From positions 32,001 through 96,000 of IMG/VR virus record IMGVR_UViG_2595698649_000001: 64,000 nt of DNA; one strand, given 5' to 3'. Positions within the stretch are counted from its first letter, which is position 1, and every line of letters starts with the position of its first letter. The position numbers and the translations under genes were made by a program. This document shows positions 1,435 through 59,077 of this stretch, one piece after another. The notes beneath the pieces are model-generated. The model was not told where the DNA came from, ran no database searches, and worked only from the letters and a program-made list of their open reading frames with translations. The stretch comes from a virus (taxonomy: Duplodnaviria > Caudoviricetes).

Positions 1435-4400
1435 ATGGCAAAATTTGACAAAAAAATAAGTAACTTAGTTTCACGGCAGTTACCTGCCCATATACAGGCA
1501 AATCATCCACTATTAGTAGAGTTCGTAAAACAGTATTATGTTTTTATGGACTCAGCACAAATCACTTTATCAAGTGTTAGTGCCTCTGACCAAATATTAT
1601 TAGAAGCTGCAACTGGTGGGTTTGTTGCCTTAAATGCAACTAACGAATTTGGTAAAGACGAAGGTGATTATATTCTTAGTGAACAAGAGAGTATAGGTGA
1701 GTTTACAAAAGGTGAAACTATTACAGGTGCCACTTCAGGTCAAACGGCAACTATACTTGCTGAAGATACAGACGCATTAAAATTATATGTTACAGAAAAT
1801 AGTTTATTCGTAACAGGTGAAACTTTAACAGGTAGTACATCTGGTGCTCAAGGTGTTATATCAAGGTACAGACCAAACCCTAACGCACACTTAACACAAC
1901 TGTTAGAGTATGCAGACGTTAACGATACTATAGATGATTTCTTTAAACAATTTAGAAATACATTTTTACAAACTTTACCAAACACACTTACAAATGGTTT
2001 AGATAAAAGACAACTAACAAAAAATATTATATCATTATACAAAGCAAAAGGTACAAAAGCGGCAAATGAAATATTTTTCCGTGCCTTGTTTAATGAAACT
2101 CCAGAATTATATTACCCTACAGTAGATATGATGAGAGTATCAGACGGTAACTTTGATACTGAACAAATAATTAAAGCAACACTATCAGCACCGTCTGATG
2201 GTAACATGAACAATCTAGTAGGTAAAACAATTACACAAGCAGATATAGTAGGTAATGATACAGTAGATATTGCCAGTTCAGTTGTTGAGAAGGCAACAAT
2301 ATCTACGATATCGTTAAATGGTGTTTCGCATGATGTTGCTACATTTGTTTTAAATAAAGATAGTACATCTGGTTCATTTTCAAGTAGTGGAGGTGACGGA
2401 TTAGTTTTAGATACAGCTGCTGATGAAAATGATAATATAATTTTAGATGGTACAGATAGTTCATCTACAAATGCAGGTGATAGATTAATACAAAATACTA
2501 AATCAATATTTTTTGGTACAGATAATACAGATAGTGATGTTACTATAGAATGTAATGTTGAAAGTATATTAGATGATGTATCAGTAAATAGTGGTGGTCA
2601 ATATTACTCTGTAGGTGAAAACATAAACTTTACAAAAGAAAAAGGTGGTACAGGTGCCATTGCACAAATAGAACAAGTTACATATGGTGTTATTGATAGT
2701 GTACAAATAGAAAATGGTGGTTCAGGTTACGCAGTAGGTGACGCATTATCAGTTACAAATCCTACAAGTGGTGATGGTCTTGCAGGTACAGTTGCAGTTG
2801 TCAATGGTGGTTTTACTTTAGAAGGTGATACACATGATGACGGTATTCTTTTATTAGAACAAGGTACAGGTTTTCAACTTGTTATGGAAGCAGCGACAAA
2901 CAGTTCTTCAAATGATATAACAAAAATTAGATTATCAAATAAAGGTGGTGGTTATCTATCATTACCTACAGTATCAGTAACTTCAACTGGTGGTTCAAAT
3001 GCTCTTGTATATCCTGTATCTTCAAGTATAGGTAAAGCATTATCTGCTAAAGTTATTGACCATGGATTTAGATATGAGACAGCACCTGAAGTATCGCCAA
3101 AACTTCACATACAAATAGATACGCTATCAAGTAACTTCACTTCTGGTGAAACAATCACAGCTTCGTCTGAGGATTATATGGCGTTAGAGGCATATGAACA
3201 AATAGATTTCCCAATATTACTAGAAGACTTTAGACAAGCAGTAATTAGATTAGAAGATTTTGAAAGAGGTGACTTAGTTACGGAAGATGGCGAACAATTT
3301 GCATTAGAAGAATTTGTATCAGGCGCCGTACCAGAAAGTGCAAGTCCAGATTTCTTACGAGACGAAACAGATAACGACAGAATTGTATATAACGAATATG
3401 TATTAAAAGATAATACAGATTATATTGTGTTGAATGGCACAGATGGTTCATCTACAAATGAAGGTGGTAAAATACAAAGAGACGACCAAGAAACAGCGTC
3501 AGGTACTTTTGAAACTTTTGACGCAGCTACAAACATTCTTACACTAAAAGAAACTACAGGTACTTTTGATGACAAAGTTACAATCACAGGTTCTACATCA
3601 GGTGAAACGGCAAGAGTAAGAAACTATAATCCACAAGATACAAAAGCAAGTATGACTGCCACAGTAGGTACTGCCATAGAAACAGATGGTAGTAATACAG
3701 GTGTTGATGGACAGTTATCAGAAAGTACAAAGAAAGTACAAGACAGTTTATACTACCAAGATTATTCATACATTATTAAAGTTGGAGAAAGTATTACTGA
3801 ATGGAGAGATTATCTTAAATCTGCCATACACCCTGCCGGTTTTTATTTCCAAGGGGAAGTTGCAATCAAAACACAATTGAATGCTAAGATGAAAACTGGA
3901 TATACTAGAATATCCGGTCTTACTGAAACAGATGAAGTTGTTGAAATACTATCTGTTATCTTTAGTGAGAAGATTGGTAGAAGACTTGGTACGCCAACTG
4001 ATGGTACAAGTGTAAGAAGTACACCTCAATTAGGTATAGAGGGTAGTGCTTCATTTGGTACTACAAGAGACGTTACACTTAATCAGGAGATTACACTTAA
4101 AACAAATCAACAAACTCAACAGCAGTTTAGGTCTACAGATATTAAACAAGGTCTAGTATATGCAGGTCCTCGTATGAAAACTATAGGCAATTTAGTCTCA
4201 GGTGCATTTGACCATACACCAGATAGAATGTTATTAAATGGTACTGATGGTTCATCTACACATGGAAATGACGGATTAATATTAGAAGACGGTGGAGATA
4301 TGAAACAAGAATTAGGTCTACGAGATATGGATAGCGGTATCACAATTGCCACTATAAATAGTATTAAATTAACAGGAACAGGTAATACATCATTTGATGG

Positions 4401-31779: not shown

Positions 31780-33157
31780 AAAAATATTAGTAATGGGTGG
31801 TGGTACTGCTGGTTGGTTAACGGCACTATATCTAACTAAAACTTTTCCTCAACATCATATTACATTAATGGAAAGTAAACCTATTGGTATCTTAGGTGCA
31901 GGTGAAGGTTCAACACCACATCTAGTAGCGTTTCTGAATATGTTAGGTGTAGATTTAAACGAATTACTTAAAGAATGTAAAGGTACAATTAAACAAGGTA
32001 TCTCATTTGAAAACTGGAATGGTGACGGTGAGAAATACTTTCATCCTTTTGCAGTACAAAATAAATATAAACATTTTAGTATAGACAATTTATTTGGTTA
32101 TGATAGTTATGATTATTATTTAAAACATTTAATTCACAGAAAAATGCCTTTGAAAGAGCATACTTATGCGTCTATACAATCATATAAGAATGTTGTTGAT
32201 ACAGATAATATAGATAACTCTATACACTTTGACGCACACCTTTTAGCAGATTATCTTAAAAAAATTACAAAAGTTGATAAACATATCTATGATGAAATTA
32301 AAACTACACAACAAGACGAACATGGTAATATAACTAAAATAAATAATGTAGAATGTGATTTAGTTTTTGATTGCACAGGTTTTCGTAGAGAGTTAATTGG
32401 TAAGTTATATAAGTCAGAATGGAAAAGTTATCAGGATTGTTTACCAATTAAGAGAGCAATACCTTTCTTTTTACCACCTGAAGATAAACCTTACACACAA
32501 GCAATCGCAATGAAATATGGTTGGGTATGGAAGATACCTTTACAACATAGATGTGGTGCAGGTTATATATTTGATAGTGATTATATAACAGACGAAGAAG
32601 CATTTGCTGAAGCAAAAGAAATGTTTCCTGATATAGAATATACAAGAACAATAAAGTTTGACGCAGGTAGATTTAAACAAACATGGATAAAAAATTGTAT
32701 TGCAGTAGGTTTATCTTCTGGTTTTACAGAACCACTTGAAGCAACATCTATTTGGATGGCAACTGAACAATTAAAATTACTTGAAACATTTATTGACATT
32801 ATGTTTACAAATGATGAAGATACTAAACAAGATTATAACGAAGTTATTGCAAATAATAATGATATGGTTATGGAGTTTTTACACTATCACTATATGACTA
32901 AAAGAGACGATAGTCCTTTTTGGAAAGAGTTTAGAAATAAAAACAATTTACCTGACTTTAATGTTAAGTTATCTAAAATACAAAAAGGTAATTTAAGATG
33001 GTATCATACAACAGGTGAAAAGATTACATCAACATTTAATCTTATGTCATGGTTGCATGTAGGCGAAGGTCTAGGTCTTATCAAAGATATAAGTATTAAA
33101 GGGTATGAAAATTTAAACCCAACAGTAGAAGAATATGGCAGACACTTACCTAGGTAA
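31754..33157 (+). CDS. Flavin-dependent (tryptophan-type) halogenase
   Basis: 'GGGTAGW', 'GAGEGS', Lys in 'GTIKQGISF', 'WVWKIPL' (WxWxIP), 'GFTEPLEATS'. Confidence 0.88.
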   Translation: MDTMDTTAKKILVMGGGTAGWLTALYLTKTFPQHHITLMESKPIGILGAGEGSTPHLVAFLNMLGVDLNELLKECKGTIKQGISFENWNGDGEKYFHPFAVQNKYKHFSIDNLFGYDSYDYYLKHLIHRKMPLKEHTYASIQSYKNVVDTDNIDNSIHFDAHLLADYLKKITKVDKHIYDEIKTTQQDEHGNITKINNVECDLVFDCTGFRRELIGKLYKSEWKSYQDCLPIKRAIPFFLPPEDKPYTQAIAMKYGWVWKIPLQHRCGAGYIFDSDYITDEEAFAEAKEMFPDIEYTRTIKFDAGRFKQTWIKNCIAVGLSSGFTEPLEATSIWMATEQLKLLETFIDIMFTNDEDTKQDYNEVIANNNDMVMEFLHYHYMTKRDDSPFWKEFRNKNNLPDFNVKLSKIQKGNLRWYHTTGEKITSTFNLMSWLHVGEGLGLIKDISIKGYENLNPTVEEYGRHLPR

Positions 33158-49092: not shown

Positions 49093-50136
49093 ATGAAAAT
49101 AGCATTAGTAAACGATACACACTTTGGCTGTCGTAATGATAACCCTAATTACCATGAATACATGTATAAGTTTTGGCAAGAACAATTCTTTCCATACTTA
49201 GAACAAAACGATATTAAAACAATTATTCATTTAGGTGATATATTAGATAGACGTAAGTATGTAAATTTTAAAACACTTACAGATTTTAATAATAAGATAG
49301 TAAGTCAATTTAAGAAATATGATACACACTTTATAGTAGGTAACCATGACACTTATTATAAGAACACAAATGAAGTAAACGCACCTAAAGAATTATTAAG
49401 TGAGTTTAAAGTTTATTCAGACCCACAAAAGATTACAATTGCAGGACATGATATATTAATTATACCATGGGTAACTCCTGAAAATTATGATAGAACTAAA
49501 ATGATGTTAGAACAAGAAACAGCAGACATTGTTATGGGTCATTTAGAGATTAAAGGTTTTGAAATGCATACTGGACATCATTCAGATGTAGGTGTAGAAA
49601 AAGAAATGTTTAAAAGATTTGAAACAGTATTATCTGGTCACTTTCATAAGAAGTCAGATGATGGTCATATATTCTACCTTGGTTGTCAATATGAAATGAC
49701 TTGGTCAGATTACAAATGTCCTAAACACTTTCACATTTACGATACAGAAACAAGAGAACTTAAAGCAATACGAAACCCTTTAACAATACATCATAAAATA
49801 TATTACAATGATGAAACAACAGATTATAAGAACTTTGATTTTAACGAATGTAATAACAAATACATTAAACTTATAGTAGAAAAGAAATCAGACTACTTTA
49901 TGTTTGATAAGTTTGTTGATGATATTTACCAAAAGTCTAATGTATATGATTTAAAGATTATAGAAGATTACTCAGACTTAGACGCTTCAACAGTAAATGA
50001 TGATATAGTTGAAAAGACGGAAGATACACCAACCTTACTTGACACCTATATAGAACAAACAGATACGAATTTAAATAAAGATAGATTAAAAACATTAATG
50101 AAAAGTTTATATACAGAGGCATTTGATTATGAATAA
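49093..50136 (+). CDS. gp47: Recombination nuclease gp47 (Mre11/SbcD-like)
   Basis: 'DTHFG', 'HLGD..DRRK', 'VGNHD', 'SGHFH'. Confidence 0.95.
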   Translation: MKIALVNDTHFGCRNDNPNYHEYMYKFWQEQFFPYLEQNDIKTIIHLGDILDRRKYVNFKTLTDFNNKIVSQFKKYDTHFIVGNHDTYYKNTNEVNAPKELLSEFKVYSDPQKITIAGHDILIIPWVTPENYDRTKMMLEQETADIVMGHLEIKGFEMHTGHHSDVGVEKEMFKRFETVLSGHFHKKSDDGHIFYLGCQYEMTWSDYKCPKHFHIYDTETRELKAIRNPLTIHHKIYYNDETTDYKNFDFNECNNKYIKLIVEKKSDYFMFDKFVDDIYQKSNVYDLKIIEDYSDLDASTVNDDIVEKTEDTPTLLDTYIEQTDTNLNKDRLKTLMKSLYTEAFDYE

Positions 50137-50842
50137 TTATGACCACAAATATTTAAATATAACTTATCCTTTTGGTCCTTACATTTATCATTGTGAACTG
50201 GATCCAAAGTTTATACAAGAACTAATTGAACAAGGTGATAAAACAACAGATAGTTACCAACAAGAAGATGGCACAATTACAAATCAAATACTTGAAGGTG
50301 CTCTTGCAGGTCAATTAGATACAGGAAACGAAAGACAATTTAATCCTAATCAACAAAGATGGTTTAATAAAAATCTTAAAGAAGTCTTTTATCATTATGT
50401 ACAAAGTAGATTTAACTTTCATAGAATAGAATATAAACCAGATTATGTATTAGAAAATGTATGGATTAATTATCAACACGCCAATGAATATCAACCTGAC
50501 CATATACACTCAGGTGATTTTAGTTGGGTTATATATTGTAAAATACCAGAGGGTTTAGAAGAAGAAAGAAAAAATTATACGAAGAAAGGTCCTGCACCAG
50601 GTAGTATTGTATTTGGATATGGCGAAGCAGCAAGCAATCCAGAAACAAGTTATCCTTGGAATAATACCACGCATAGTGTTATACCAAAAGAAGGACACAT
50701 GATTATATTCCCGGCACAAATGAGACACTTTGTACCACCATTTAAAAGTGAAGGTACAAGAATATCAGTAAGTGGTAACGGAGTATTGTATATGCCAGAC
50801 CAAAAATTATATCACATGGGAGAAAAGCGTTACGAAATATGA
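50123..50842 (+). CDS. Putative 2OG-Fe(II) oxygenase
   Basis: 'WINYQ...EYQPDHIHSG.FSWVIY', 'IFPA..RHFV.PF....RISVSGN'. Confidence 0.8.
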   Translation: MIMNNYDHKYLNITYPFGPYIYHCELDPKFIQELIEQGDKTTDSYQQEDGTITNQILEGALAGQLDTGNERQFNPNQQRWFNKNLKEVFYHYVQSRFNFHRIEYKPDYVLENVWINYQHANEYQPDHIHSGDFSWVIYCKIPEGLEEERKNYTKKGPAPGSIVFGYGEAASNPETSYPWNNTTHSVIPKEGHMIIFPAQMRHFVPPFKSEGTRISVSGNGVLYMPDQKLYHMGEKRYEI

Positions 50843-52551
50843 TAGTATTTGAAAAGATTAAATGGAAGAACTTTCTTTCAACAGGACAACAAGGCATAGA
50901 AATAGATTTAAACAAAGACGCAACAACACTTATCATAGGTCACAATGGTGCAGGTAAGTCAACGATACTTGACGCATTGTGTTTTGCCTTGTTTAATAAA
51001 CCCTTTAGAGATATAAAGAAAGAACAATTAATTAACAGTATCAACTTAGGTGGTACTGAGATAGAAGTAAACTTTACCATTGCACAAAACAAGTATAGAG
51101 TAGTACGAGGTATTAAACCTAATATATTCCAGATATACTTAAATGGTGAAATGATAAACCAAGAAGCAACTATAGCTGACCAACAAAAACATTTAGAGAA
51201 CAATATACTTAAATTTAACTATAGAAGTTTTACTCAGGTAGTAATCTTAGGTAGTAGTACATTTGTTCCTTTTATGGAATTGAAGTCACCACATAGACGA
51301 GAGGTAGTAGAAGACATTTTAGATATTAAGATATTTTCAGTAATGAATATGTTAGTTAAAATGCAAATCAAAGAAGTTACTGAACAGATAAGAGATATTG
51401 ATAGAGATATACAAATAACAAAGAGTAAAGTAGAAACTCAACAACAATATTTACAAGATACAGGTAAACAGAATACAAAAGTTATAGATGATTATAATTC
51501 TAAGATAGAAGATAATAAACTGGCAATAGACAAGTATTCAACACATGTTGAGGGTATCAATAAACAGATAACAAATATTAAAACAACAATATTAGATGAA
51601 GAAAAGGTAAGACAACAAGTTAAGAAACTGAATAGTTTTGAAACACAGTTTGAAAGTAAAGTAAATCAATGTACAAAACATAAGAAGTTTTATGAACTCA
51701 ATGATAACTGTCCTACTTGTCAACAAAGTATTGACCCACAATTTAAATCAGAAAAGATTGCTGATGAAAACAAATCACTTATTAAATTTAATCAGGCATT
51801 AGCAGATGTTGCTAAAGAGATTACAACTAAACAAAATAGATTACAAGCAATTGCTAGTGTACACGAAGAAATAAAAGTATTAGAGATTGATAGTGTTAAG
51901 TATGAACAATCAAAAAATGAGTTAAACAATATTAACACAAAATTGGCACATAACATTGAACAGTTATCACAACAAAGTGAAGACACAGGTAAAGCAAAAG
52001 GTAAGTTAGAAGAATTAGAAAATCAATTACAAGAATATGAAAAGGCAATAAGAACTAAAAAAGAAGAAACTGATTACCTACAAGCTGCAAGAGTAATGTT
52101 AGCAGATACAGGTATTAAAACAAAAGTTATCAAACAATACTTACCTATTATGAACCAGTTAATTAACAAGTATCTGGCAAGTATGGATTTCTTTGTTAAC
52201 TTTAAATTAGATGATGAGTTTAAAGAAATAATAAGAAGTAGATTTAGAGACGATTTTAGTTATACAAGTTTTAGTGAAGGTGAGAAGATGAGAATAAATC
52301 TTGCATTGTTATTTACATGGCGTGCTATTGCTAAAATGAAAAACAGTATATCAACAAATCTATTATTACTAGATGAAATATTTGATAGTAGTTTAGACGG
52401 ACAAGGTACAGATGATTTCTTAAAGATACTAAACACACTAGAGGGCGAGAATGTGTTTATTATATCTCACAAGACAGATATTATGGCAGACAAATTTAAA
52501 CAACAAATAAGGTTTGAGAAAGATAAGAACTTTACAAGGATAGTAGAATGA
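50839..52551 (+). CDS. gp46: Recombination ATPase gp46 (Rad50/SbcC-like)
   Basis: 'GHNGAGKST', zinc hook 'CPTCQQ', 'FSEGEK', 'LLLDEIFDSSLD'. Confidence 0.96.
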   Translation: MIVFEKIKWKNFLSTGQQGIEIDLNKDATTLIIGHNGAGKSTILDALCFALFNKPFRDIKKEQLINSINLGGTEIEVNFTIAQNKYRVVRGIKPNIFQIYLNGEMINQEATIADQQKHLENNILKFNYRSFTQVVILGSSTFVPFMELKSPHRREVVEDILDIKIFSVMNMLVKMQIKEVTEQIRDIDRDIQITKSKVETQQQYLQDTGKQNTKVIDDYNSKIEDNKLAIDKYSTHVEGINKQITNIKTTILDEEKVRQQVKKLNSFETQFESKVNQCTKHKKFYELNDNCPTCQQSIDPQFKSEKIADENKSLIKFNQALADVAKEITTKQNRLQAIASVHEEIKVLEIDSVKYEQSKNELNNINTKLAHNIEQLSQQSEDTGKAKGKLEELENQLQEYEKAIRTKKEETDYLQAARVMLADTGIKTKVIKQYLPIMNQLINKYLASMDFFVNFKLDDEFKEIIRSRFRDDFSYTSFSEGEKMRINLALLFTWRAIAKMKNSISTNLLLLDEIFDSSLDGQGTDDFLKILNTLEGENVFIISHKTDIMADKFKQQIRFEKDKNFTRIVE

Positions 52552-53555
52552 AAATAACAATAGCTAGATTAAGAAGTGGAACAAATTATAAAGAACCATT
52601 ATTAGATATTATGGATTCTTTTTATGAGTTATATAAAAAATATCAAATACAAAGACCACAACACTCATATGGATATTACAACTTTGGTTTTGGTTTTGCA
52701 AACAGACAAAAGATGGATGATATTAAAGATAGTGATGTTATTATAATACCAAGTGAGAATGAGTTTACATTTCATATCAAAAACTTTCAGGACAATAGAC
52801 AAGTATTTCGTAGTAACGAAAAGGTACGAGAGATAGGTGCCATGTTGGCAGACAAACATATTATTATAATGAGAAGTGATAGAGCAGATAATGAAGAACT
52901 ATACAGAAACAAAACATTTAAAGGATTTGATATAGGTAAGGTAAGTATATTAGATGAAATAGATATTGAAGGTGGCATACATGCTATGAAGTATCATTTT
53001 ATTACAGACGCAATACCACCTAAATTAGAAGAAGGTACGAGAGCATATGATTTTGTATATTGGGGTACAGACAAAAGAAAGACAGCAGACAATGTTGAAA
53101 GTGGAGATATAAGACATACTTTCTTTAAACAAATATACAAAGAGAAAAAAATTAGTGCATACTGGATTGGTAAGTTTTCAGGTGTACAAAGAGATAAGAA
53201 AATAGATAAGATGAGAAATCTATTACCACATTTAACAAATGGTAAAACAACAATGTGTTTTAACTGGATGAGCAACACAGCAACAACAAGTAGATACCAC
53301 GAGGCATTAGCATGTGGCATAATACCATTTGTACATGAAAACTATGATGTAAACAATACAATAGTTGGAAACGAATGGCAAAGAGTGGTAGATGTAGAAC
53401 ATTTATATTCTAAGATTGACGAATTAAGAACAAACAATAGCTGGCAAGAAAAGTATAATGAGATACTAGATGACTATAAACGGAGAACATTAAAGTCAAA
53501 AGAGTGGTATTACAACGCTTTTCAATCAAGGCTTGACAATTTGATTAATTTATGA
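52548..53555 (+). CDS. GT-B glycosyltransferase resembling T4 DNA beta-glucosyltransferase
   Basis: 335 aa. 'MKITI', 'YDFVYWG' and 'TSRYHEALACGIIPFVHENYD...IVGNEW..V.....L...IDEL....SKEWY..AF' parallel T4 Bgt segments as I recall them. Confidence 0.65.
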   Translation: MKITIARLRSGTNYKEPLLDIMDSFYELYKKYQIQRPQHSYGYYNFGFGFANRQKMDDIKDSDVIIIPSENEFTFHIKNFQDNRQVFRSNEKVREIGAMLADKHIIIMRSDRADNEELYRNKTFKGFDIGKVSILDEIDIEGGIHAMKYHFITDAIPPKLEEGTRAYDFVYWGTDKRKTADNVESGDIRHTFFKQIYKEKKISAYWIGKFSGVQRDKKIDKMRNLLPHLTNGKTTMCFNWMSNTATTSRYHEALACGIIPFVHENYDVNNTIVGNEWQRVVDVEHLYSKIDELRTNNSWQEKYNEILDDYKRRTLKSKEWYYNAFQSRLDNLINL

Positions 53556-53561
53556 TAAGCT
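53533..53561 (+). promoter_or_regulatory. Sigma70-type promoter
   Basis: TTGACA-N17-TAAGCT. Confidence 0.5.
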
Positions 53562-53574
53562 TAGTAAATATAAT

Positions 53575-54119
53575 ATGGAAAAACTAATAACTAAAATTGA
53601 AGACATAAAAGTTAATTTATGTGAAGATGATATTTTAAATTTTTTACAAATACAGAAACGCTGGCCAATACAGTATTCTACTTCACAACCTACAGTACAA
53701 ATCATAAATGAACTAGGTAATTTCTACAACGATTTTTTTGAAAATACTGTAGATGGAATATTCTTAAATTATGATAAGTGGTTATCTTTATACAACTTAG
53801 GATTTACTTCTATTATATCAAATGTTTTAGATTTATCAAAAGAACTAAGAACATTAGAGAAATTAATAATAGAAGAAATAGGTGTAAAAGTTTGTGGTAA
53901 TTTTTACTTTAGTAAACCTGGAAGAAAAGAAAGTTTTGATAAACATACCCATAGTTATGATGTTATAGTAAAACAAATATATGGCAAGTCAAAATGGATT
54001 TTAAACAACCAAGAAATAGACCTATGTCCTAATCAAGTATTATATGTACCTAAAAATACTGAACACGCTGTTATTGAAAAAACAGAAAAAAATTATCATT
54101 AACCTTAAATTTAGCATGA
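53575..54119 (+). CDS. JmjC/cupin_4-like 2OG oxygenase (apparent 1-nt frameshift at A7, 54086-54092)
   Basis: 'NFYFS....SF..HTHSYDVIVKQIYGKSKW', 'LYVPK...HAV'. Adding one A gives 'KKLSLTLNLA*', ending in an ATGA overlap with the next gene. Confidence 0.75.
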
Positions 54120-55258
54120 AGAATAAACCTATAGACCCTTTATTAGAAAAACAATGGGAGACCTTTCAACAAGAAAATCCTACACCTTACGAACATATAG
54201 ATACAAACGAACTTAAAGAGCGTTTAATTACTGAACTAGGTTATGTATCTGGTATGACAGTAGAAGAATATACATTATATCAAAAATGGTGTGAAGTTAA
54301 AAACAAGTATCCTGCTCAGACAGTAAACACTTTATTTGGCGAAGAAAGTCAATTAGTAGATTTATCAAAAGATAAACTATTATCTCATGTAAAGAACAAT
54401 ATATGGTCACCTCAGGATCCTATGGATTTTGAGAAGTTACAACCAGAACTAATCTATACAAAAGATAGTCCAGAATTACCACAATTGTGGAACGCAATAA
54501 GAACATTTGCCTCTACAATGAAAAACAATAACAATATAGGTCGTAATCTAAACTTTATAGTAAGAGATAAACCAACAAAGAAATATCTAGGTGTCATTTG
54601 TATATCAAGTGACTTTTTAGATTTAACACCTAGAGATAATTACATAGGTTGGGATAGAGTTAGAAAAACACAAAAGATGATTAATCATACGGCGATAGGT
54701 AGTACGATTGTGCCACTACAACCACTAGGTTATAATTACACAGGTGGTAAGTTACTTGCGTTGATGTGTTTATCAGATAAAGTACAAGAGACATGGAAAA
54801 AAGAATATGGCGATACAATGGTTGGTGTTACAACTACAAGTTTATATGGTAGTTTTAGTCAATATCAGAATTTGAAACACTGGAAGAAAAGAGGTCATAG
54901 TGCAGGTAGTGTATCATACGAAGCAACGAAACCTACTATTCAGATGTTAAGAAAGTGGATTATGGAAAATCACACTAGAAAATACTTTGAATGGTATAGT
55001 GCTACAAAACCTACAGGTCAACCATATAAGAGAGACCACAGAAATAGAAGTCATACATTTGCATATAGTAAACTAGGTATACCAAAAGAGTTAACAAAGT
55101 CAGACCACAGTAGAGGTATCTATTTTTCCGCTAGAAAGCGTATTAAATCATTGATTGACCAAACAAGGACAAACATGGAGACGCTTTACTATGATGACTT
55201 GATACATTTAACATGGGAAGAAACCAAAGAAAAGTATCTAAAACAGGTAGGAAGATAA
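54116..55258 (+). CDS. DUF4338/DruA-like protein
   Basis: 'GRNLNFIVRD..T.KYLGVI.I.SD...L..RD.YIGW', 'IVP.QPLGYNY.GGKLLAL', 'TTTSLYG..SQY'. Confidence 0.65.
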   Translation: MKNKPIDPLLEKQWETFQQENPTPYEHIDTNELKERLITELGYVSGMTVEEYTLYQKWCEVKNKYPAQTVNTLFGEESQLVDLSKDKLLSHVKNNIWSPQDPMDFEKLQPELIYTKDSPELPQLWNAIRTFASTMKNNNNIGRNLNFIVRDKPTKKYLGVICISSDFLDLTPRDNYIGWDRVRKTQKMINHTAIGSTIVPLQPLGYNYTGGKLLALMCLSDKVQETWKKEYGDTMVGVTTTSLYGSFSQYQNLKHWKKRGHSAGSVSYEATKPTIQMLRKWIMENHTRKYFEWYSATKPTGQPYKRDHRNRSHTFAYSKLGIPKELTKSDHSRGIYFSARKRIKSLIDQTRTNMETLYYDDLIHLTWEETKEKYLKQVGR

Positions 55259-55280: not shown

Positions 55281-55397
55281 GTGCGATATGACGCACCAGC
55301 AATAAATCGTTGATTTATAAAGGTTCTTTTTTTGTATTTTATGCCAATAATTGTTGACTTTTGGTTAAAATTGGTATAGGATATACAGTATATTATG
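55281..55397 (+). promoter_or_regulatory. Early promoter element, copy 1 (upstream boxes + TTGACT-N17-TAGGAT)
   Basis: Shares ordered blocks with 57767-57880. Confidence 0.7.
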
Positions 55398-57749
55398 AAA
55401 ACGAGGTCAAATATGAATACTATTTCAAAAGAGCAAAAATCAAATCTTGCTAAATTACTTGCAACAGAAAATCTAAACGTAGAACATAGAAAAGTTAAAA
55501 CAGCACACTTTGTTCCAAAGACTAGAACTTTATGTCTTCCAATATGGGACAATATGTCTAATGACCTTTATGACTTATTATGTGGACACGAAGTTGGTCA
55601 CGCATTATGGACTCCTGCTGATGAGACAAAATTAAACGAAGCAAAAAAGAAACACAATATTCCTCACTCTTACATGAATGTTATTGAAGATATCAGAATT
55701 GATAAGAAGATGAAATTAAAATACCCTGGTCTTAGAAAATCATACTTTAACGGTTACAAAGAATTAGTTGCTAGAGACTTTTTTGGTAAGATTGGTGACG
55801 AAGCAAACAATATGAGATTTATTGATAGACTTAATGTGTTTACAAAATCTGGTCACTTAGAAAATACTATTGAGTTTAATGACCAAGAAAAATCATTTAT
55901 TGAAAAATCAAATCACTTAGAAACTTTTGATGATGTAATTGACCTTGCTAAACAAATCTTTGCTTATAGTAAAGAAGAAAATTACGATAAAGAAAAAGAC
56001 CCTTTATTTCAACAGTTAAAAGAAATAGAACAAGATAAACTTGACCAAGATGAACAAGATAATCAATCAGAGCAATCTGAAAGTGAAGATAGTCAGGATC
56101 CTTCAGATGAAAAGCAATCACAATCTGGTGGTGATGAAGATACAGAAAAAGAAGAAGAAAAAGATAATACAACTTCAGGTGATGACGGTAACAAAACTGA
56201 TGAACCTGAAAACGAGAATAAACAAAAAGTAGATGGTAACAAAGGTCACATGGGTAGTCATAATCCAGAGTATCAACCTGAAAAAATTACTCCTTCAAAT
56301 AGTGACGGTTCATTATCAGATGAAATGTTTAAAGAAGCAATGAAGTCTTTATCAAATATGTCTGAGAATATTAGAGACCGTAGGTATGTTACATTACCAA
56401 GTCTTAGTGAGGAAGATGTTATTATATCTTCAAAACATGTTGCTAAGTTATACAAAGATTATTATACAAAAAAATATTCATCAACTCCTACAATGATGGC
56501 AAATAGTCTTAATAGATTTAAAGAGTGGAAGAAATCACAATCTGGTACAATCTCTTATATGGCAAAAGAGTTTGAAATGAAAAAAGCGGCAGATACTTAC
56601 AAAAAGTCTTTAACAAGTAAAACTGGTATTATCAATATGAATAAAATTCACTCATATAAATTCAATGATGATATATTCAAAAAAATTCAAATAGAACCAG
56701 GTGCCAAAAATCATGGTATGATTATGTTTATAGATTGGTCTGGATCCATGTCTCAAAATATTGATGACACAATCAAGCAAACTTTAAACTTAGTAATGTT
56801 TTGTAAAGCAGTTCAAATACCTTTTAGAGTATTTGCTTTTTCAGATATTACTAGAGCTGCGTTCTATAAAGAAGACCATGATGATTATGGTTATTCAAGT
56901 AGAGCAGCAAGAGATTTAAAAAACAATCCTTTTAAACATAAACACGGTGACTTGTTTATTGAAAATGTAAACTTAATTGAGTGGTTATCAAGTGACCAAA
57001 AAACTCCTGAGTATAATGAGAATATGTTAAACTTATATAGATTTGGTGAGTATCATACTCAATATTATAATCATAGAAGACATTATGACAGTTATGAAGA
57101 ACCAATTGATATGCCTAGTTGTATGAGACTTGGCGGTACTCCTCTGGATCCTGCTATCGTTGCTTCTTTAACTATTGTTAAAAACTTTATTCTTAAACAT
57201 AAGATACAAAAAATGAATACAATCTTTTTAACTGATGGTTGTGGTCATTCAATGTATAATACTGTTACTACTACTGACAAAGGTAATTTAGAATTAGATT
57301 ATGGTAGTGAAAATGCAGATTTAGTTATCAAAAATCCAGTTACTAAAAAAAACTATCCTTATGAAAGTCATAGATTTACAAAATCAACTGCCGTTATGTT
57401 TGATATGTTAAGACAATCTACTGGTACTAATATTGTAGGTTTCTATGTTACAAGTAGAAATAATGCTAGTTACTATGATATATCAAATTTCTTACCAGAA
57501 GGTGCCGGTTATGACGGTGTTGACGCTGTAAGAAAACAAATGCGTAAAGATAAAGTTGGTACTATTGTTGGTACTGGTTATGATGAATTGTTTATCATTC
57601 CAAAAAAGAATTTAAAGATAGTTGACGAAGAAGCGAAGATTAATCCAGATATGTCAATTGCTAAAATGAAAGCAGAATTTGGTAAGACTTTAAAAACTAA
57701 AAAGATATCCAGAGTTTTACTGAATAAATTTGTGGAAAGAGTTGCCTAA
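55395..57749 (+). CDS. Metallopeptidase-motif + VWA protein (CobT-like), partner of AAA ATPase
   Basis: 'LAKLLATENL.V', HExxH 'GHEVGHAL', 'N..ED.RI', MIDAS 'IDWSGSM', 'LGGTPL', 'FLTDG'. Confidence 0.8.
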   Translation: MKTRSNMNTISKEQKSNLAKLLATENLNVEHRKVKTAHFVPKTRTLCLPIWDNMSNDLYDLLCGHEVGHALWTPADETKLNEAKKKHNIPHSYMNVIEDIRIDKKMKLKYPGLRKSYFNGYKELVARDFFGKIGDEANNMRFIDRLNVFTKSGHLENTIEFNDQEKSFIEKSNHLETFDDVIDLAKQIFAYSKEENYDKEKDPLFQQLKEIEQDKLDQDEQDNQSEQSESEDSQDPSDEKQSQSGGDEDTEKEEEKDNTTSGDDGNKTDEPENENKQKVDGNKGHMGSHNPEYQPEKITPSNSDGSLSDEMFKEAMKSLSNMSENIRDRRYVTLPSLSEEDVIISSKHVAKLYKDYYTKKYSSTPTMMANSLNRFKEWKKSQSGTISYMAKEFEMKKAADTYKKSLTSKTGIINMNKIHSYKFNDDIFKKIQIEPGAKNHGMIMFIDWSGSMSQNIDDTIKQTLNLVMFCKAVQIPFRVFAFSDITRAAFYKEDHDDYGYSSRAARDLKNNPFKHKHGDLFIENVNLIEWLSSDQKTPEYNENMLNLYRFGEYHTQYYNHRRHYDSYEEPIDMPSCMRLGGTPLDPAIVASLTIVKNFILKHKIQKMNTIFLTDGCGHSMYNTVTTTDKGNLELDYGSENADLVIKNPVTKKNYPYESHRFTKSTAVMFDMLRQSTGTNIVGFYVTSRNNASYYDISNFLPEGAGYDGVDAVRKQMRKDKVGTIVGTGYDELFIIPKKNLKIVDEEAKINPDMSIAKMKAEFGKTLKTKKISRVLLNKFVERVA

Positions 57750-57766
57750 ATGAAAAAAATGACTAA

Positions 57767-57880
57767 GTGCGACATGTTGACACAGCAATTAATTTGGAAA
57801 GCGTTGAAATATAAAGGTTTTTTATTTGAAATAACGCTTGACTTTAACAATAAAGTGTGATAGGATATAGTTATATTATG
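57767..57880 (+). promoter_or_regulatory. Early promoter element, copy 2
   Basis: TTGACT(57838)-N17-TAGGAT(57861) with the same upstream blocks as copy 1. Confidence 0.7.
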
Positions 57881-59077
57881 AAAAAAAGTGAAAGGACTAC
57901 AATTATGTTAAACGAGAAACAAAAAAAGTTTGTTGACCTTGCTGTAAAAGAACTTGGTACTGATACAGTAACAAGAAAGCAAGTACAAGAACTTGAAACA
58001 AAATTTAACCTTACTGGTAACAGTTGGTTAGTAAATTCAGGAGATTACAAAGTGGGCAGAGGCGTATATAAATTACCTACTGACGGTGTTGTAAACCCTA
58101 GTAAGAATATCAAACAGAAATTGCCTAAGACTAAAGCAGTTGCTGAGACAGTTACTTTAAAAGAGACTGCTCAAAATACTGAGAGTTTAGTTCCTAATAA
58201 AGAGGCAACTTTCGTATCATTTGGTAATTACAAAGATATTAAGAATATTGTAAAATCTAAAATATTCTATCCTACATTTATTACAGGTCTTTCTGGTAAC
58301 GGTAAGACTTTAGGTGTTACTCAAGCGTGTGCTGAGTTAAAAAGAGAATTAATTAGAGTTAACATAACAGTTGAAACGGACGAAGATGATTTACTTGGTG
58401 GTTTCAGACTAGTTGACGGTGCTACAGTATGGCATGACGGTCCTGTTGTTGACGCTATGAAGCGTGGTGCTCTTCTATTGTTAGATGAGATTGACCTTGC
58501 TTCAAACAAAATTATGTGTTTGCAACCTATCTTAGAAGGTAACGGAGTGTTCCTTAAAAAGATTGGTAAATTTGTTGAACCTGCTGAAGGTTTCAACATT
58601 GTTGCTACTGCCAATACTAAAGGTAAAGGTAGTGAAGACGGAAGATTTATTGGTACTAACATACTCAATGAAGCTTTCTTAGAAAGATTTCCTGTTACTT
58701 TTGAACAAGAGTATCCTCCTGTAAAAGTAGAACAGAAAATTTTAGATAATGTTATGTCCGCTTATGCTTTAAAGGATCCTAAGTTTACTGAGAACCTTGT
58801 TAAATGGGCAGATGTTATTAGAAAAACTTTTTATGATGGCGGTGTTGATGAGATTATTGCTACTAGAAGACTAGTGCATATCATTAATGCTTTTGCTATC
58901 TTTAAGAATAAACTTAAAGCTGTTCAAGTTTGTGTAAACAGATTTGATGACGATACTAAAAACAGTTTCTTAGATTTATATTCTAAAGTTGACGCTGGTG
59001 TTAACATGGAAGATATATCTGGAAATGGGAATGATGTTGACCCAATAAACATGGAAGAGGAAACTCCAAGTGTTTAA
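57878..59077 (+). CDS. MoxR/CobS-like AAA+ ATPase (start 57878 or 57905)
   Basis: Walker A 'GLSGNGKT', 'ETDEDDLLGGF', Walker B 'LLLDEID', 'ATANTKG.GS.DGRF.GTN.LNEAFLERF'. Confidence 0.88.
   Translation: MKKSERTTIMLNEKQKKFVDLAVKELGTDTVTRKQVQELETKFNLTGNSWLVNSGDYKVGRGVYKLPTDGVVNPSKNIKQKLPKTKAVAETVTLKETAQNTESLVPNKEATFVSFGNYKDIKNIVKSKIFYPTFITGLSGNGKTLGVTQACAELKRELIRVNITVETDEDDLLGGFRLVDGATVWHDGPVVDAMKRGALLLLDEIDLASNKIMCLQPILEGNGVFLKKIGKFVEPAEGFNIVATANTKGKGSEDGRFIGTNILNEAFLERFPVTFEQEYPPVKVEQKILDNVMSAYALKDPKFTENLVKWADVIRKTFYDGGVDEIIATRRLVHIINAFAIFKNKLKAVQVCVNRFDDDTKNSFLDLYSKVDAGVNMEDISGNGNDVDPINMEEETPSV

Follow-up and report, generated by a model that had tools for sequence, protein, structure and literature searches.

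A very distant homologue of T4 DNA beta-glucosyltransferase and its DruA/DUF4338 neighbour in a T4-like phage

The window analysed here is a 64,000-nucleotide stretch (positions 32,001 to 96,000) of IMG/VR virus record IMGVR_UViG_2595698649_000001, which comprises 147,284 bp and has a completeness rating of 100%. Three open reading frames lie directly after gp46, as the preliminary description had claimed. The gp46 frame itself is confirmed by a full-length match to T4 gp46 at 34% identity (E 3e-103); the frame for a 335-residue glycosyltransferase (GT) begins with an ATG that overlaps the gp46 stop. The features of the locus, in window coordinates, are the following:

50123..50842, plus strand: 2OG-Fe(II) oxygenase of the Pfam family 2OG-FeII_Oxy_5 (Oxy_5), between gp47 and gp46 (PF13759 E 1.6e-15; phrog_81 E 4.9e-35)
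50839..52551, plus strand: gp46, an SbcC-like recombination nuclease subunit and the upstream anchor of the locus
52548..53555, plus strand: GT-B glycosyltransferase, 335 aa, distant homologue of T4 DNA beta-glucosyltransferase (Bgt)
53575..54102, plus strand: small cupin, 175 aa, present sporadically and separating the GT gene from DUF4338 (partial Pfam JmjC_2 match; PHROGs)
54079..54085, plus strand: A-run that has one base fewer than its counterpart in environmental contigs (contig comparison)
54116..55258, plus strand: DruA/DUF4338-family protein (GNAT-like), 380 aa, the usual downstream partner of the GT (PF14236)
55129..55130, plus strand: junction of a 114-nt in-frame deletion that sets this copy apart from every relative examined (blastn against the related loci L003, L004 and L008)

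The third frame is listed as 54044-55258 (404 aa), and a start at the ATG at 54116, giving the 380-residue form (P0269 in the protein collection), is more likely than one at 54044.

A Pfam scan assigns the GT to no family, and its C-terminus matches phrog_7922, annotated 'beta-glucosyltransferase', with an E of 1.4e-4 in PHROGs. In a Foldseek search with the AlphaFold (AF2) model of the protein (pLDDT 88.7, pTM 0.87), T4 Bgt fills the first five rows (best E 2.2e-7), and ranks 1-11 are T4 Bgt or Agt without exception. The VIA comparison with T4 Bgt gives Z of 19.6-20.5 over 287-296 aligned residues at an rmsd of 3.2-3.6, the best match being 1qkj (Z 20.5, rmsd 3.2, 292 residues). T4 Agt follows at 16.1-16.7 and the best non-phage GT-B enzyme at 14.7, such that the lead over all other GT-B enzymes is about 6 Z units for Bgt and about 2 for Agt. 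A best structural match to LPS or protein GT4 enzymes had been named as a result that would speak against the preliminary reading, and this objection falls because T4 Bgt and Agt match best, by a clear margin.

The structural result is accompanied by profile-profile homology. A GT family profile of 37 representatives, 24-79% identical to the window GT, was aligned by hhalign with a Bgt-family profile of 24 sequences, and the C-terminal domain matched over 163 columns (probability 96.1%, E 2.9e-9); with a permissive setting it extends collinearly over the whole length (302 columns, E 4e-10). Invariant residues of the GT and Bgt families pair as Y171/G173 with Y186/G188, R249 with R269, E252 with E272, D267 with D287, and W240 with Y261. 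The two T4 Bgt segments cited in the preliminary description are both truly present in T4 Bgt (b-gt translation, NC_000866), and hhalign pairs them with the GT segments quoted beside them. In the N-terminal, acceptor-binding domain the likeness to Bgt is by structure only: PF09198, the Pfam model of this domain of T4 Bgt, does not match the GT in hmmscan at E up to 1, and a search of the whole genome with it, at E up to 10, gives no hit. No equivalent of the T4 catalytic Asp100 could be fixed from the alignments. The structural alignment shows 14% identity with T4 Bgt, and the GT is not among the 42 proteins of the T4 Bgt family proper (E 1e-3 or less). The fold (Z 20.5) and the profile match (E 2.9e-9) thus establish the 335-residue protein as a real, very distant homologue of T4 Bgt.

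The genes that would prepare a T4-type acceptor had been reported as missing from the window, and the same is now found for the whole record, which has no match to PF00303, PF12851, PF00145, PF01555, PF02086, or PF02511. Neither a hydroxymethylase of the thymidylate synthase family, nor ThyX, TET/JBP, or a DNA methylase was found in the complete genome.

The gene linkage was assessed in 80 related viral loci, 62 of which are informative in that their sequence continues for at least 1300 nt past the GT. A DUF4338 gene starts within 400 nt of the GT in 42 of the 62 (gaps from -4 to 90 nt). Together with L003, where the two are separated by the cupin, this makes 43 of 62 with a linked pair. The cupin itself occurs in L003 alone among the 80, one environmental contig skips the stretch 53578-54130, and the only named cupin homologues (Synechococcus phage S-SSM7 and cyanophage S-SSM6a) are located elsewhere, with neither GT nor DruA as neighbour. 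A fixed three-gene cassette, as first described, is therefore not supported.

The JmjC_2 match of the cupin (E 1.8e-7) covers only profile positions 14-62 of 127, and the metal motif conserved between the window protein and the S-SSM7 homologue is HxH...H, not the HxD/E...H of JmjC/2OG oxygenases. One contig in each of four environmental runs has an extra A after 54085; the shorter A-run of the window shortens the C-terminus of the cupin and removes the stop/start overlap with the DUF4338 gene. In L003 the cupin has 181 residues and its stop overlaps the DUF4338 ATG.

The assignment of the third protein to DUF4338 is confirmed by PF14236 (DruA, formerly DUF4338), with an E of 6.2e-18 and 65.4 bits against a curated cut-off of 27. 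A second paralogue, also above the cut-off, lies in this genome between DNA polymerase and a UvsX-like gene. A GNAT fold is weakly indicated by the structural matches, the top ones of which are nearly all GNATs (Z 5.2 or less), and part of PMC10853773 calls DUF4338 a GNAT. In sequence, nothing links the protein to Mu Mom, the hhalign probability being 0.3% and PF25680 giving no match at E up to 1. The 114-nt deletion is private to the window copy and removes 38 conserved residues that are present in all 24 other rows of the DUF4338 alignment; environmental contigs of all four runs carry the 114 letters. The DruA profile span is 32-296 in a full-length relative and 32-220 only in the window copy, which may be impaired by the loss.

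In 19 of the 62 informative loci the GT is without DUF4338; in 15 of these it is preceded by a PLP-enzyme-like gene and followed by an SPPY methylase-like gene. Other members of the family are fused to ParB_N and N6_N4_Mtase domains (P0190) or to Asp_Arg_Hydrox (L088), or follow a ParB_N, N6_N4_Mtase, and Asp_Arg_Hydrox frame located just upstream (L090). At L057 a GT8 glycosyltransferase and a 2OG oxygenase are lined up with the GT, at L075 its partner is an RfaE-domain-II/mannose-6-P-isomerase-like protein (RfaE-like nucleotidyltransferase), and elsewhere AspH/LpxO-like, 2-Hacid_dh-like, and PALP-like proteins are found. Oxy_5 genes abut the GT in L096, L067-L069, and L080-L082. Because these lineages have an enzyme of this family immediately next to the GT, the Oxy_5 gene upstream of gp46 is a possible hydroxylase partner. 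The family also occurs in Mosig, a phage without the GT. The suggested sequence of hydroxylation and glycosylation is saved in part by the 2OG oxygenases of other families and the DNA-methylase-like proteins that adjoin the GT or are fused to it elsewhere.

Homology and gene neighbourhood suggest the following reading. The GT is a nucleotide-sugar-dependent GT-B enzyme of the same stock as T4 Bgt, most likely transferring a sugar to phage DNA after replication. As the genome has no route to 5-hydroxymethylcytosine (hmC) or 5-hydroxymethyluracil (hmU), the acceptor would be some other group on a base of the DNA, which partner enzymes would produce. The partner that stays constant in this phage lineage would be the GNAT-like DruA/DUF4338 protein directly downstream, possibly helped by a 2OG oxygenase, either the sporadic cupin or the Oxy_5 enzyme encoded two genes upstream; in other lineages the GT may work with AspH-like 2OG oxygenases, ParB_N/N6-N4-methylase-like proteins, or the PLP-enzyme-like protein. 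We consider the chances about even that the GT glycosylates such a non-hmC acceptor on DNA. Since a Bgt relative is present beside an acyltransferase-like gene and the known genes for the T4 base are absent, this marine T4-like phage would then probably make an undescribed DNA sugar modification. DNA-hypermodification genes are carried by other SAR11 phages, according to the part of PMC9599517 consulted. The reading is weakened by the fact that the two genes also occur apart: DUF4338 is found in Mosig, in 25 Synechococcus phage records, and as the second copy in this genome with no GT at its side, and the GT lacks DUF4338 in 19 of 62 loci. In addition, the DUF4338 copy of the window may be impaired.

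It is rather unlikely that the GT acts on a target other than DNA, such as a glycan of the host envelope, lipid A, a protein of host or phage origin, or a small molecule, with the neighbouring oxygenase, PLP-enzyme-like, and dehydrogenase-like genes belonging to that metabolism. Several partner families (Asp_Arg_Hydrox, 2-Hacid_dh-like, PALP-like, and the protein at L075) are indeed also typical of envelope or small-molecule metabolism, bacterial Asp_Arg_Hydrox members including lipid A hydroxylases. The GT8 neighbour at L057, the missing route to hmC or hmU, and the acceptor domain unmatched by PF09198 point the same way, and sections of PMC7029224 favour modification of host lipopolysaccharide for pelagimyophage GTs and describe restriction systems as rare in SAR11. 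However, the closest solved structures are those of both T4 DNA glucosyltransferases, the family is fused or adjacent to DNA-methylase-like domains, and in other settings the DruA family belongs to DNA-centred defence systems (its Pfam name; a DndF fusion in the portion of PMC10853773 seen). The GT also sits in a replication and recombination module rather than in the tail-fibre island, which holds most lipopolysaccharide genes in the excerpted account of PMC7029224.

That the GT, cupin, and DUF4338 genes are independent cargo of an insertion hotspot after gp46, each acting alone (DUF4338, for example, as an acyltransferase against a host defence or replication protein), appears quite unlikely. 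The stretch from gp46 to a cobT-like gene does vary among relatives, with differing fillers (in Mosig two oxygenases, a deformylase, DUF4338, and MazG), and the cupin varies as an indel polymorphism. Paralogues of DUF4338 are placed elsewhere, namely the second copy of this genome and, in S-SSM7, a copy between gp44 and gp62, and a few lineages account through near-copies for many of the 43 linked loci. Against this, the gap of the pair stays at -4 to 90 nt while GT identity drops from 99% to 53%, and the pair is found again, in a different gene context, in L096 and L100, with a GT of 41% identity and a short DruA protein too diverged for BLASTP; the GT family also has forms fused to its other partner types. 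The closest fold and the conserved donor-site residues would fit a functional equivalent of T4 Bgt that glucosylates hmC supplied by an unrecognised hydroxymethylase or the host. This is highly improbable given the absence of thymidylate-synthase-family, ThyX, TET/JBP, and C5-methylase matches from a record rated complete, the exclusion of the GT from the Bgt family proper, and the low identity.

Among known systems, T4 Bgt (CAZy family GT63; PF09198; PDB 1qkj, 1nzd, 1c3j, 1j39, 1bgt) is the nearest. The two share the two-domain GT-B fold at similar length (335 vs 351 aa), a homologous C-terminal nucleotide-sugar domain in which invariant Arg, Glu, Asp, and aromatic residues pair up, and a gene placed among replication and recombination genes of a T4-like phage. 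Unlike T4, this phage has no gene-42-type hydroxymethylase, and the DruA-like, oxygenase, methylase-like, and PLP-enzyme-like partners have no counterpart beside T4 b-gt. T4 Agt (PDB 1y8z, 1y6f, 1xv5) is the second-best structural match, and a-gt adjoins genes 47 and 46 as the window GT does; it differs in its length of about 400 aa and in an hhalign match of 44 columns at 9.7% probability only. Both DUF4338 proteins of the genome match PF14236, the family of Druantia DruA; the downstream protein differs in being phage-encoded and beside a glycosyltransferase.

Mu Mom (PF25680; PDB 8bv8), described in a passage of PMC13219725 as a GNAT that modifies adenine in double-stranded DNA with Gly-tRNA, offers a possible analogy, that of a GNAT-fold enzyme which modifies a base in DNA. 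It is among the GNAT structural matches of DUF4338 (Z 4.3, rank 21), a score within noise and no better than many other GNATs, and a DUF4338 homologue from a cyanophage carries the label 'methylcarbamoylase mom' in one GenBank record. Phage modules of TET/JBP-like 5-methylpyrimidine dioxygenases with glycosyltransferases and ParB activators are known from the part of PMC13229309 available. They differ in the oxygenase, which has no TET/JBP match here, the GT-linked enzymes being Asp_Arg_Hydrox, 2OG-FeII_Oxy_5, or small cupin proteins. Their logic of post-replicative oxidation followed by glycosylation may nevertheless be analogous, and ParB_N and N6/N4-methylase domains are likewise found in the neighbourhoods of the present GT family.

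The source virus record of the window is 147,284 bp long; of the named phages in the collection, Pelagibacter phage Mosig is the closest to it. Three ORFs follow gp46 on the plus strand in the order given by the preliminary description, whose observation of these genes is thus confirmed. The arrangement is as follows:

49093-50136, plus strand: gp47
50123-50842, plus strand: 2OG-FeII_Oxy_5 oxygenase
50839-52551, plus strand: gp46, 34% identity to T4 gp46
52548-53555, plus strand: glycosyltransferase (GT), 335 aa, its ATG overlapping the gp46 stop
53575-54102, plus strand: cupin, 175 aa, with a partial Pfam JmjC_2 match
54116-55258, plus strand: DruA/DUF4338 protein, start as in the protein-collection entry
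after the DUF4338 gene, plus strand: cobT-like 'peptidase', then a CobS-like AAA protein

At 55395-59077 lie the 784-aa cobT-like protein (phrog_459 'peptidase'), which has a long acidic low-complexity middle, and the CobS-like AAA_5 ATPase next to it; nearly all related loci keep both genes after the cassette. A promoter and terminator scan was uninformative, since the sites were rarer than in shuffled sequence (49 promoter-like sites against 59, and 1 terminator-like site against 2.1).

The present comparisons show that the GT is a true, very distant homologue of the T4 β-glucosyltransferase (Bgt), with an intact-looking donor site. The AlphaFold2 model, for which 31 homologues were used as input, has a pLDDT of 88.7 and a pTM of 0.87, and its GT-B fold is closest to the solved T4 Bgt structures. 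The top five Foldseek rows obtained with this model are all T4 Bgt (best E 2.2e-7), followed by T4 Agt, and the first enzyme outside these two in the ranking is BshA, at E 2.9e-5. With VIA-align, the Z scores are 19.6-20.5 for T4 Bgt (287-296 residues, rmsd 3.2-3.6), 16.1-16.7 for T4 Agt, and at most 14.7 for every other GT-B enzyme; the best match is 1qkj (Z 20.5, rmsd 3.2, 292 of the 335 residues aligned). At the level of sequence profiles, hhalign pairs a GT-family profile (A1) with a 24-sequence Bgt-family profile (A3) at a probability of 85.7% and E 5.5e-6, and a second GT-family profile built on 37 representatives (A4) matches the same Bgt profile at 96.1% (E 2.9e-9), the alignment spanning 163 columns in the C-terminal domain. 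A permissive alignment of the two families is collinear across both entire proteins, and among the PHROGs the GT C-terminus weakly matches phrog_7922 'beta-glucosyltransferase' (E 1.4e-4). The two segments of T4 Bgt that the preliminary description had quoted are indeed found in that protein, the reference sequence being taken from the T4 record.

R249, E252, D267, and W240 of the GT, which are invariant or nearly so in its family, pair with R269, E272, D287, and Y261 of T4 Bgt, all invariant within the Bgt family, and a YxG motif is paired as well. The T4 R191/R195 region also aligns with the GT, offset by one residue. R191/R195, Y261, R269, and E272 are donor-site residues of T4 Bgt, and the paired invariant residues line the UDP-glucose site of the T4 enzyme. 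The N-terminal, acceptor-side domain of the modelled GT resembles Bgt by structure only; a search of the genome with PF09198 (Bgt N-terminal domain, 167 positions) found nothing even with E values up to 10 allowed. In the N-domain alignments, which are of low confidence, the GT family keeps a [D/E]111-x-x-D114 motif after a β-strand, and this resembles T99-D100 of Bgt, where Asp100 is the catalytic base. Charge does not discriminate, because the median isoelectric points are 8.4 for the GT family, 8.8 for DUF4338, and 6.3 for the Bgt family.

Pfam has no family that matches the GT, even with E values up to 1 allowed, and NCBIfam has no match for the GT, the cupin, or the DUF4338 protein. HMM searches of PDB sequences with the GT and DUF4338 profiles returned chance-level rows only, and no match came from a tblastn search with the GT of 50,697 phage records, a set from which the window's own record may be missing, or from megablast of the cassette region. 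The family is large but has no name; it comprises 757 database proteins at E ≤0.01, with no Pfam domain in the 120 of them listed, and an exhaustive search yielded 229 representatives at E ≤0.001. A search of genome contigs with one GT subgroup (A5) gave 56 pattern matches and 0 relatives, a result that is limited by the pattern and does not amount to absence from cellular genomes; in another subgroup (A6), conservation was too low throughout to give a search pattern.

The genome is without the known hydroxymethylpyrimidine routes. Searches for hydroxymethylase, methyltransferase, and TET genes, extended beyond the window as the preliminary description had suggested, matched none in the genome, which is rated 100% complete: there is no match to PF00303 (Thymidylat_synt, for a gene 42-type dCMP hydroxymethylase), Thy1, Tet_JBP, DNA_methylase (C5), N6_N4_Mtase, or MethyltransfD12, in searches whose first step is a loose one, so that very remote relatives could escape them. 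Far from the cassette, a 169-aa ORF of the same genome (locus L108) matches Asp_Arg_Hydrox weakly and below threshold at G000:C1:3676-3867 (E 2.9e-4, 17.3 bits), and might be the AspH-like oxygenase of the genome.

The cupin scores 31.1 bits against JmjC_2 (cut-off 22), the match covering profile positions 14-62 of 127 only, and generic cupin families match it weakly. JmjC/2OG oxygenases bind iron through an HxD/E...H triad. The residues common to the window cupin and its S-SSM7 homologue, which has unrelated neighbours, are H124-x-H126 ... H164, with no acidic residue at the second triad position. This conserved HxH...H arrangement differs from the HxD/E...H triad of 2OG oxygenases.

The DUF4338 protein reaches 65.4 bits against PF14236 (curated cut-off 27), covering profile positions 32-220 only because of a 114-nt deletion, and its full-length relative P0270 reaches 73.6 bits over positions 32-296. 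The undeleted form of the protein has 418 aa. The gene is part of a phage replication module. The model is of mediocre quality (pLDDT 70.9), and its best conserved loops score below 50. GNATs make up nearly all of the top 50 VIA matches (residues 105-246, Z ≤5.2), Mu Mom among them at Z 4.3; Foldseek gave no match at E ≤0.001. An Atlas lead for the protein reads 'GNAT-phage-like' (score 0.83), and DUF4338 is stated to be a GNAT in PMC10853773. A relationship to Mom was considered and ruled out at the sequence level, since hhalign of the DUF4338 alignment (A2) against Mu Mom gives a probability of 0.3% and P0270 has no PF25680 match at E up to 1, Mu Mom itself scoring 253 bits. The accessible text of the YprA/Druantia preprint states no function for DruA that we could find, and among the papers found on DUF4338 we saw no report of it paired with a phage GT.

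In the window's DUF4338 gene the 114 nt (38 codons) are missing in frame at 55129/55130, inside the DruA domain. They are present in three related loci (L003, L004, and L008), in 24 of 24 other aligned homologues, and in contigs of four of four environmental sequencing runs. Impaired function of this DUF4338 copy is possible, as is a change introduced into the record by assembly or in the laboratory. The A-run at 54079-54085 likewise has one base fewer than its counterparts in L003 and the same four environmental runs. In those, the cupin has 181 aa and its stop overlaps the DUF4338 start, whereas the window cupin is shorter by 6 residues at its end and has lost this overlap. In one contig of run X5 the cupin gene is missing entirely. 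At least half of the sampled words of the stretch are present in 16 runs, and some part of it in 20 runs from 11 studies (seawater metagenomes). RNA-library contigs of two runs (X15 and X16) cover the cassette genes, which is no proof of expression since such contigs may derive from DNA.

The GT is tightly and recurrently linked to DruA-like proteins. Neighbours were located by tblastn in 80 related viral loci, 62 of which, with at least 1300 nt downstream of the GT, form the informative set. DUF4338 lies within 400 nt of the GT (gaps of -4 to 90 nt) in 42 of the 62, follows an intervening cupin in one more (L003), and is absent from 19, counts that overstate independence because many loci are near-copies. 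Across the DUF4338-linked loci, GT identity ranges from 99% down to 53%. L003 is also the one locus of all 80 with the cupin, so the idea of a fixed three-gene cassette is not supported.

In 15 of the 19 loci without DUF4338, the GT has a 250-aa PLP-type protein upstream, related to ACC deaminase/D-cysteine desulfhydrase-type enzymes (PDB 9jqf, E 2.8e-7), and downstream a 360-aa protein that carries an SPPY motif and matches N6_N4_Mtase below threshold. A cassette of PLP-enzyme homologue, GT, and SPPY methylase-like protein is seen in the T4-like phages of L066 (5255-8080), L075 (5252-9064), and L053, followed in the latter two by a fusion of a cytidylyltransferase-like domain (RfaE domain II-like) and a mannose-6-P-isomerase cupin; the window cupin shows no similarity to the cupin part of this nucleotidyltransferase fusion in L075. 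L057 (4120-10621) holds a 54% identical GT homologue outside the gp46 context. Upstream of it are 767- and 367-aa ORFs that read by eye as ribonucleotide reductase subunits, and downstream a GT8 glycosyltransferase, several unknown ORFs, a 2OG-FeII_Oxy_3 oxygenase, and an ORF starting like an NAD-dependent sugar epimerase/dehydratase.

Family-wide, the GT is linked or fused to oxygenases and to DNA-methylase-like or ParB_N domains. Among 24 metagenome loci examined for distant homologues, with the GT present in 23, an Asp_Arg_Hydrox-type 2OG oxygenase is near the GT in 13 loci, a PLP-enzyme-like protein in 14 (8 of them weak matches), a 2-hydroxyacid-dehydrogenase-like protein in 9, and an SPPY methylase-like protein in 6. 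A short, highly diverged DruA protein comes directly after the GT in L096 and L100 (and at the edge of L097); the GTs of L096 and L100 are 41% identical to that of the window, and L096 has a 2OG-FeII_Oxy_5 gene directly upstream. Natural fusions are GT::Asp_Arg_Hydrox (L088, 327-2570; partial form P0164) and GT::ParB_N::N6_N4_Mtase (P0190), and in L090 (3002-5983) a ParB_N::N6_N4_Mtase::Asp_Arg_Hydrox ORF lies just upstream of the GT, with some ParB_N and methylase scores below the Pfam cut-offs and ORF calls noisy on these higher-GC contigs. In L101, a 228-aa ORF (3660-4346) between dehydrogenase-like and methylase-like genes of the phage GT cluster strongly matches NadA, the quinolinate synthetase (E 4e-90, covering positions 2-204 of the 295 in the profile).

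DruA proteins also occur apart from the GT. A second paralogue in the window's genome (374 aa, Pfam E 1.8e-10; L110, 1243-2367; G000:C1 about 99535-100659) sits outside the window, flanked by the genes for DNA polymerase and a UvsX/RecA-like protein. It probably corresponds to the cyanophage 'putative cytoplasmic protein' that is encoded between gp44 and gp62. DUF4338 homologues without the GT are found in 25 Synechococcus phage records, and Mosig has a DUF4338 gene at the equivalent place, the GT being absent.

We see about even chances that the GT glycosylates DNA, on a new acceptor that the partner enzymes would make. The main rival, in which the acceptor would be something other than DNA, seems to us somewhat unlikely. 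Some of the partner families do have an envelope-type flavour, and PMC7029224 argues for lipopolysaccharide as the GT target in these phages, an argument against which stands the presence of DNA-hypermodification genes in other SAR11 phages, as described in PMC9599517.

For glycosylation of DNA, one specific scheme, which we regard as a long shot, would be a post-replicative, hmC-independent sugar-on-DNA route of abundant ocean phages. A DNA-directed 'writer' would attach a group to the exocyclic amine of adenine or cytosine, this writer being a DruA-type GNAT in the window lineage and a ParB_N/N6-N4-methylase-like enzyme in others. A 2OG oxygenase (AspH-like, Oxy_5, or cupin) would then hydroxylate the attached group, and the Bgt-like transferase would add a sugar to that hydroxyl, giving a hitherto undescribed kind of glycosylated N-linked base adduct.

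If the GT acts on DNA, new acceptor chemistry is indicated, and the DruA/DUF4338 family would gain a function, none being found in the accessible parts of the literature. Such a modification could also bias sequencing-based surveys of marine viruses. Cultured close relatives exist, such as Mosig with its DUF4338 gene, so the question is directly testable. The textbook case of anti-restriction modification in T-even phages is glucosylation of their DNA by Bgt and Agt, and that case depends on hydroxymethylcytosine. Here, a true but very distant relative of Bgt is widespread in open-ocean T4-like phages that are without a hydroxymethylpyrimidine pathway, and it is found there with unusual partners.
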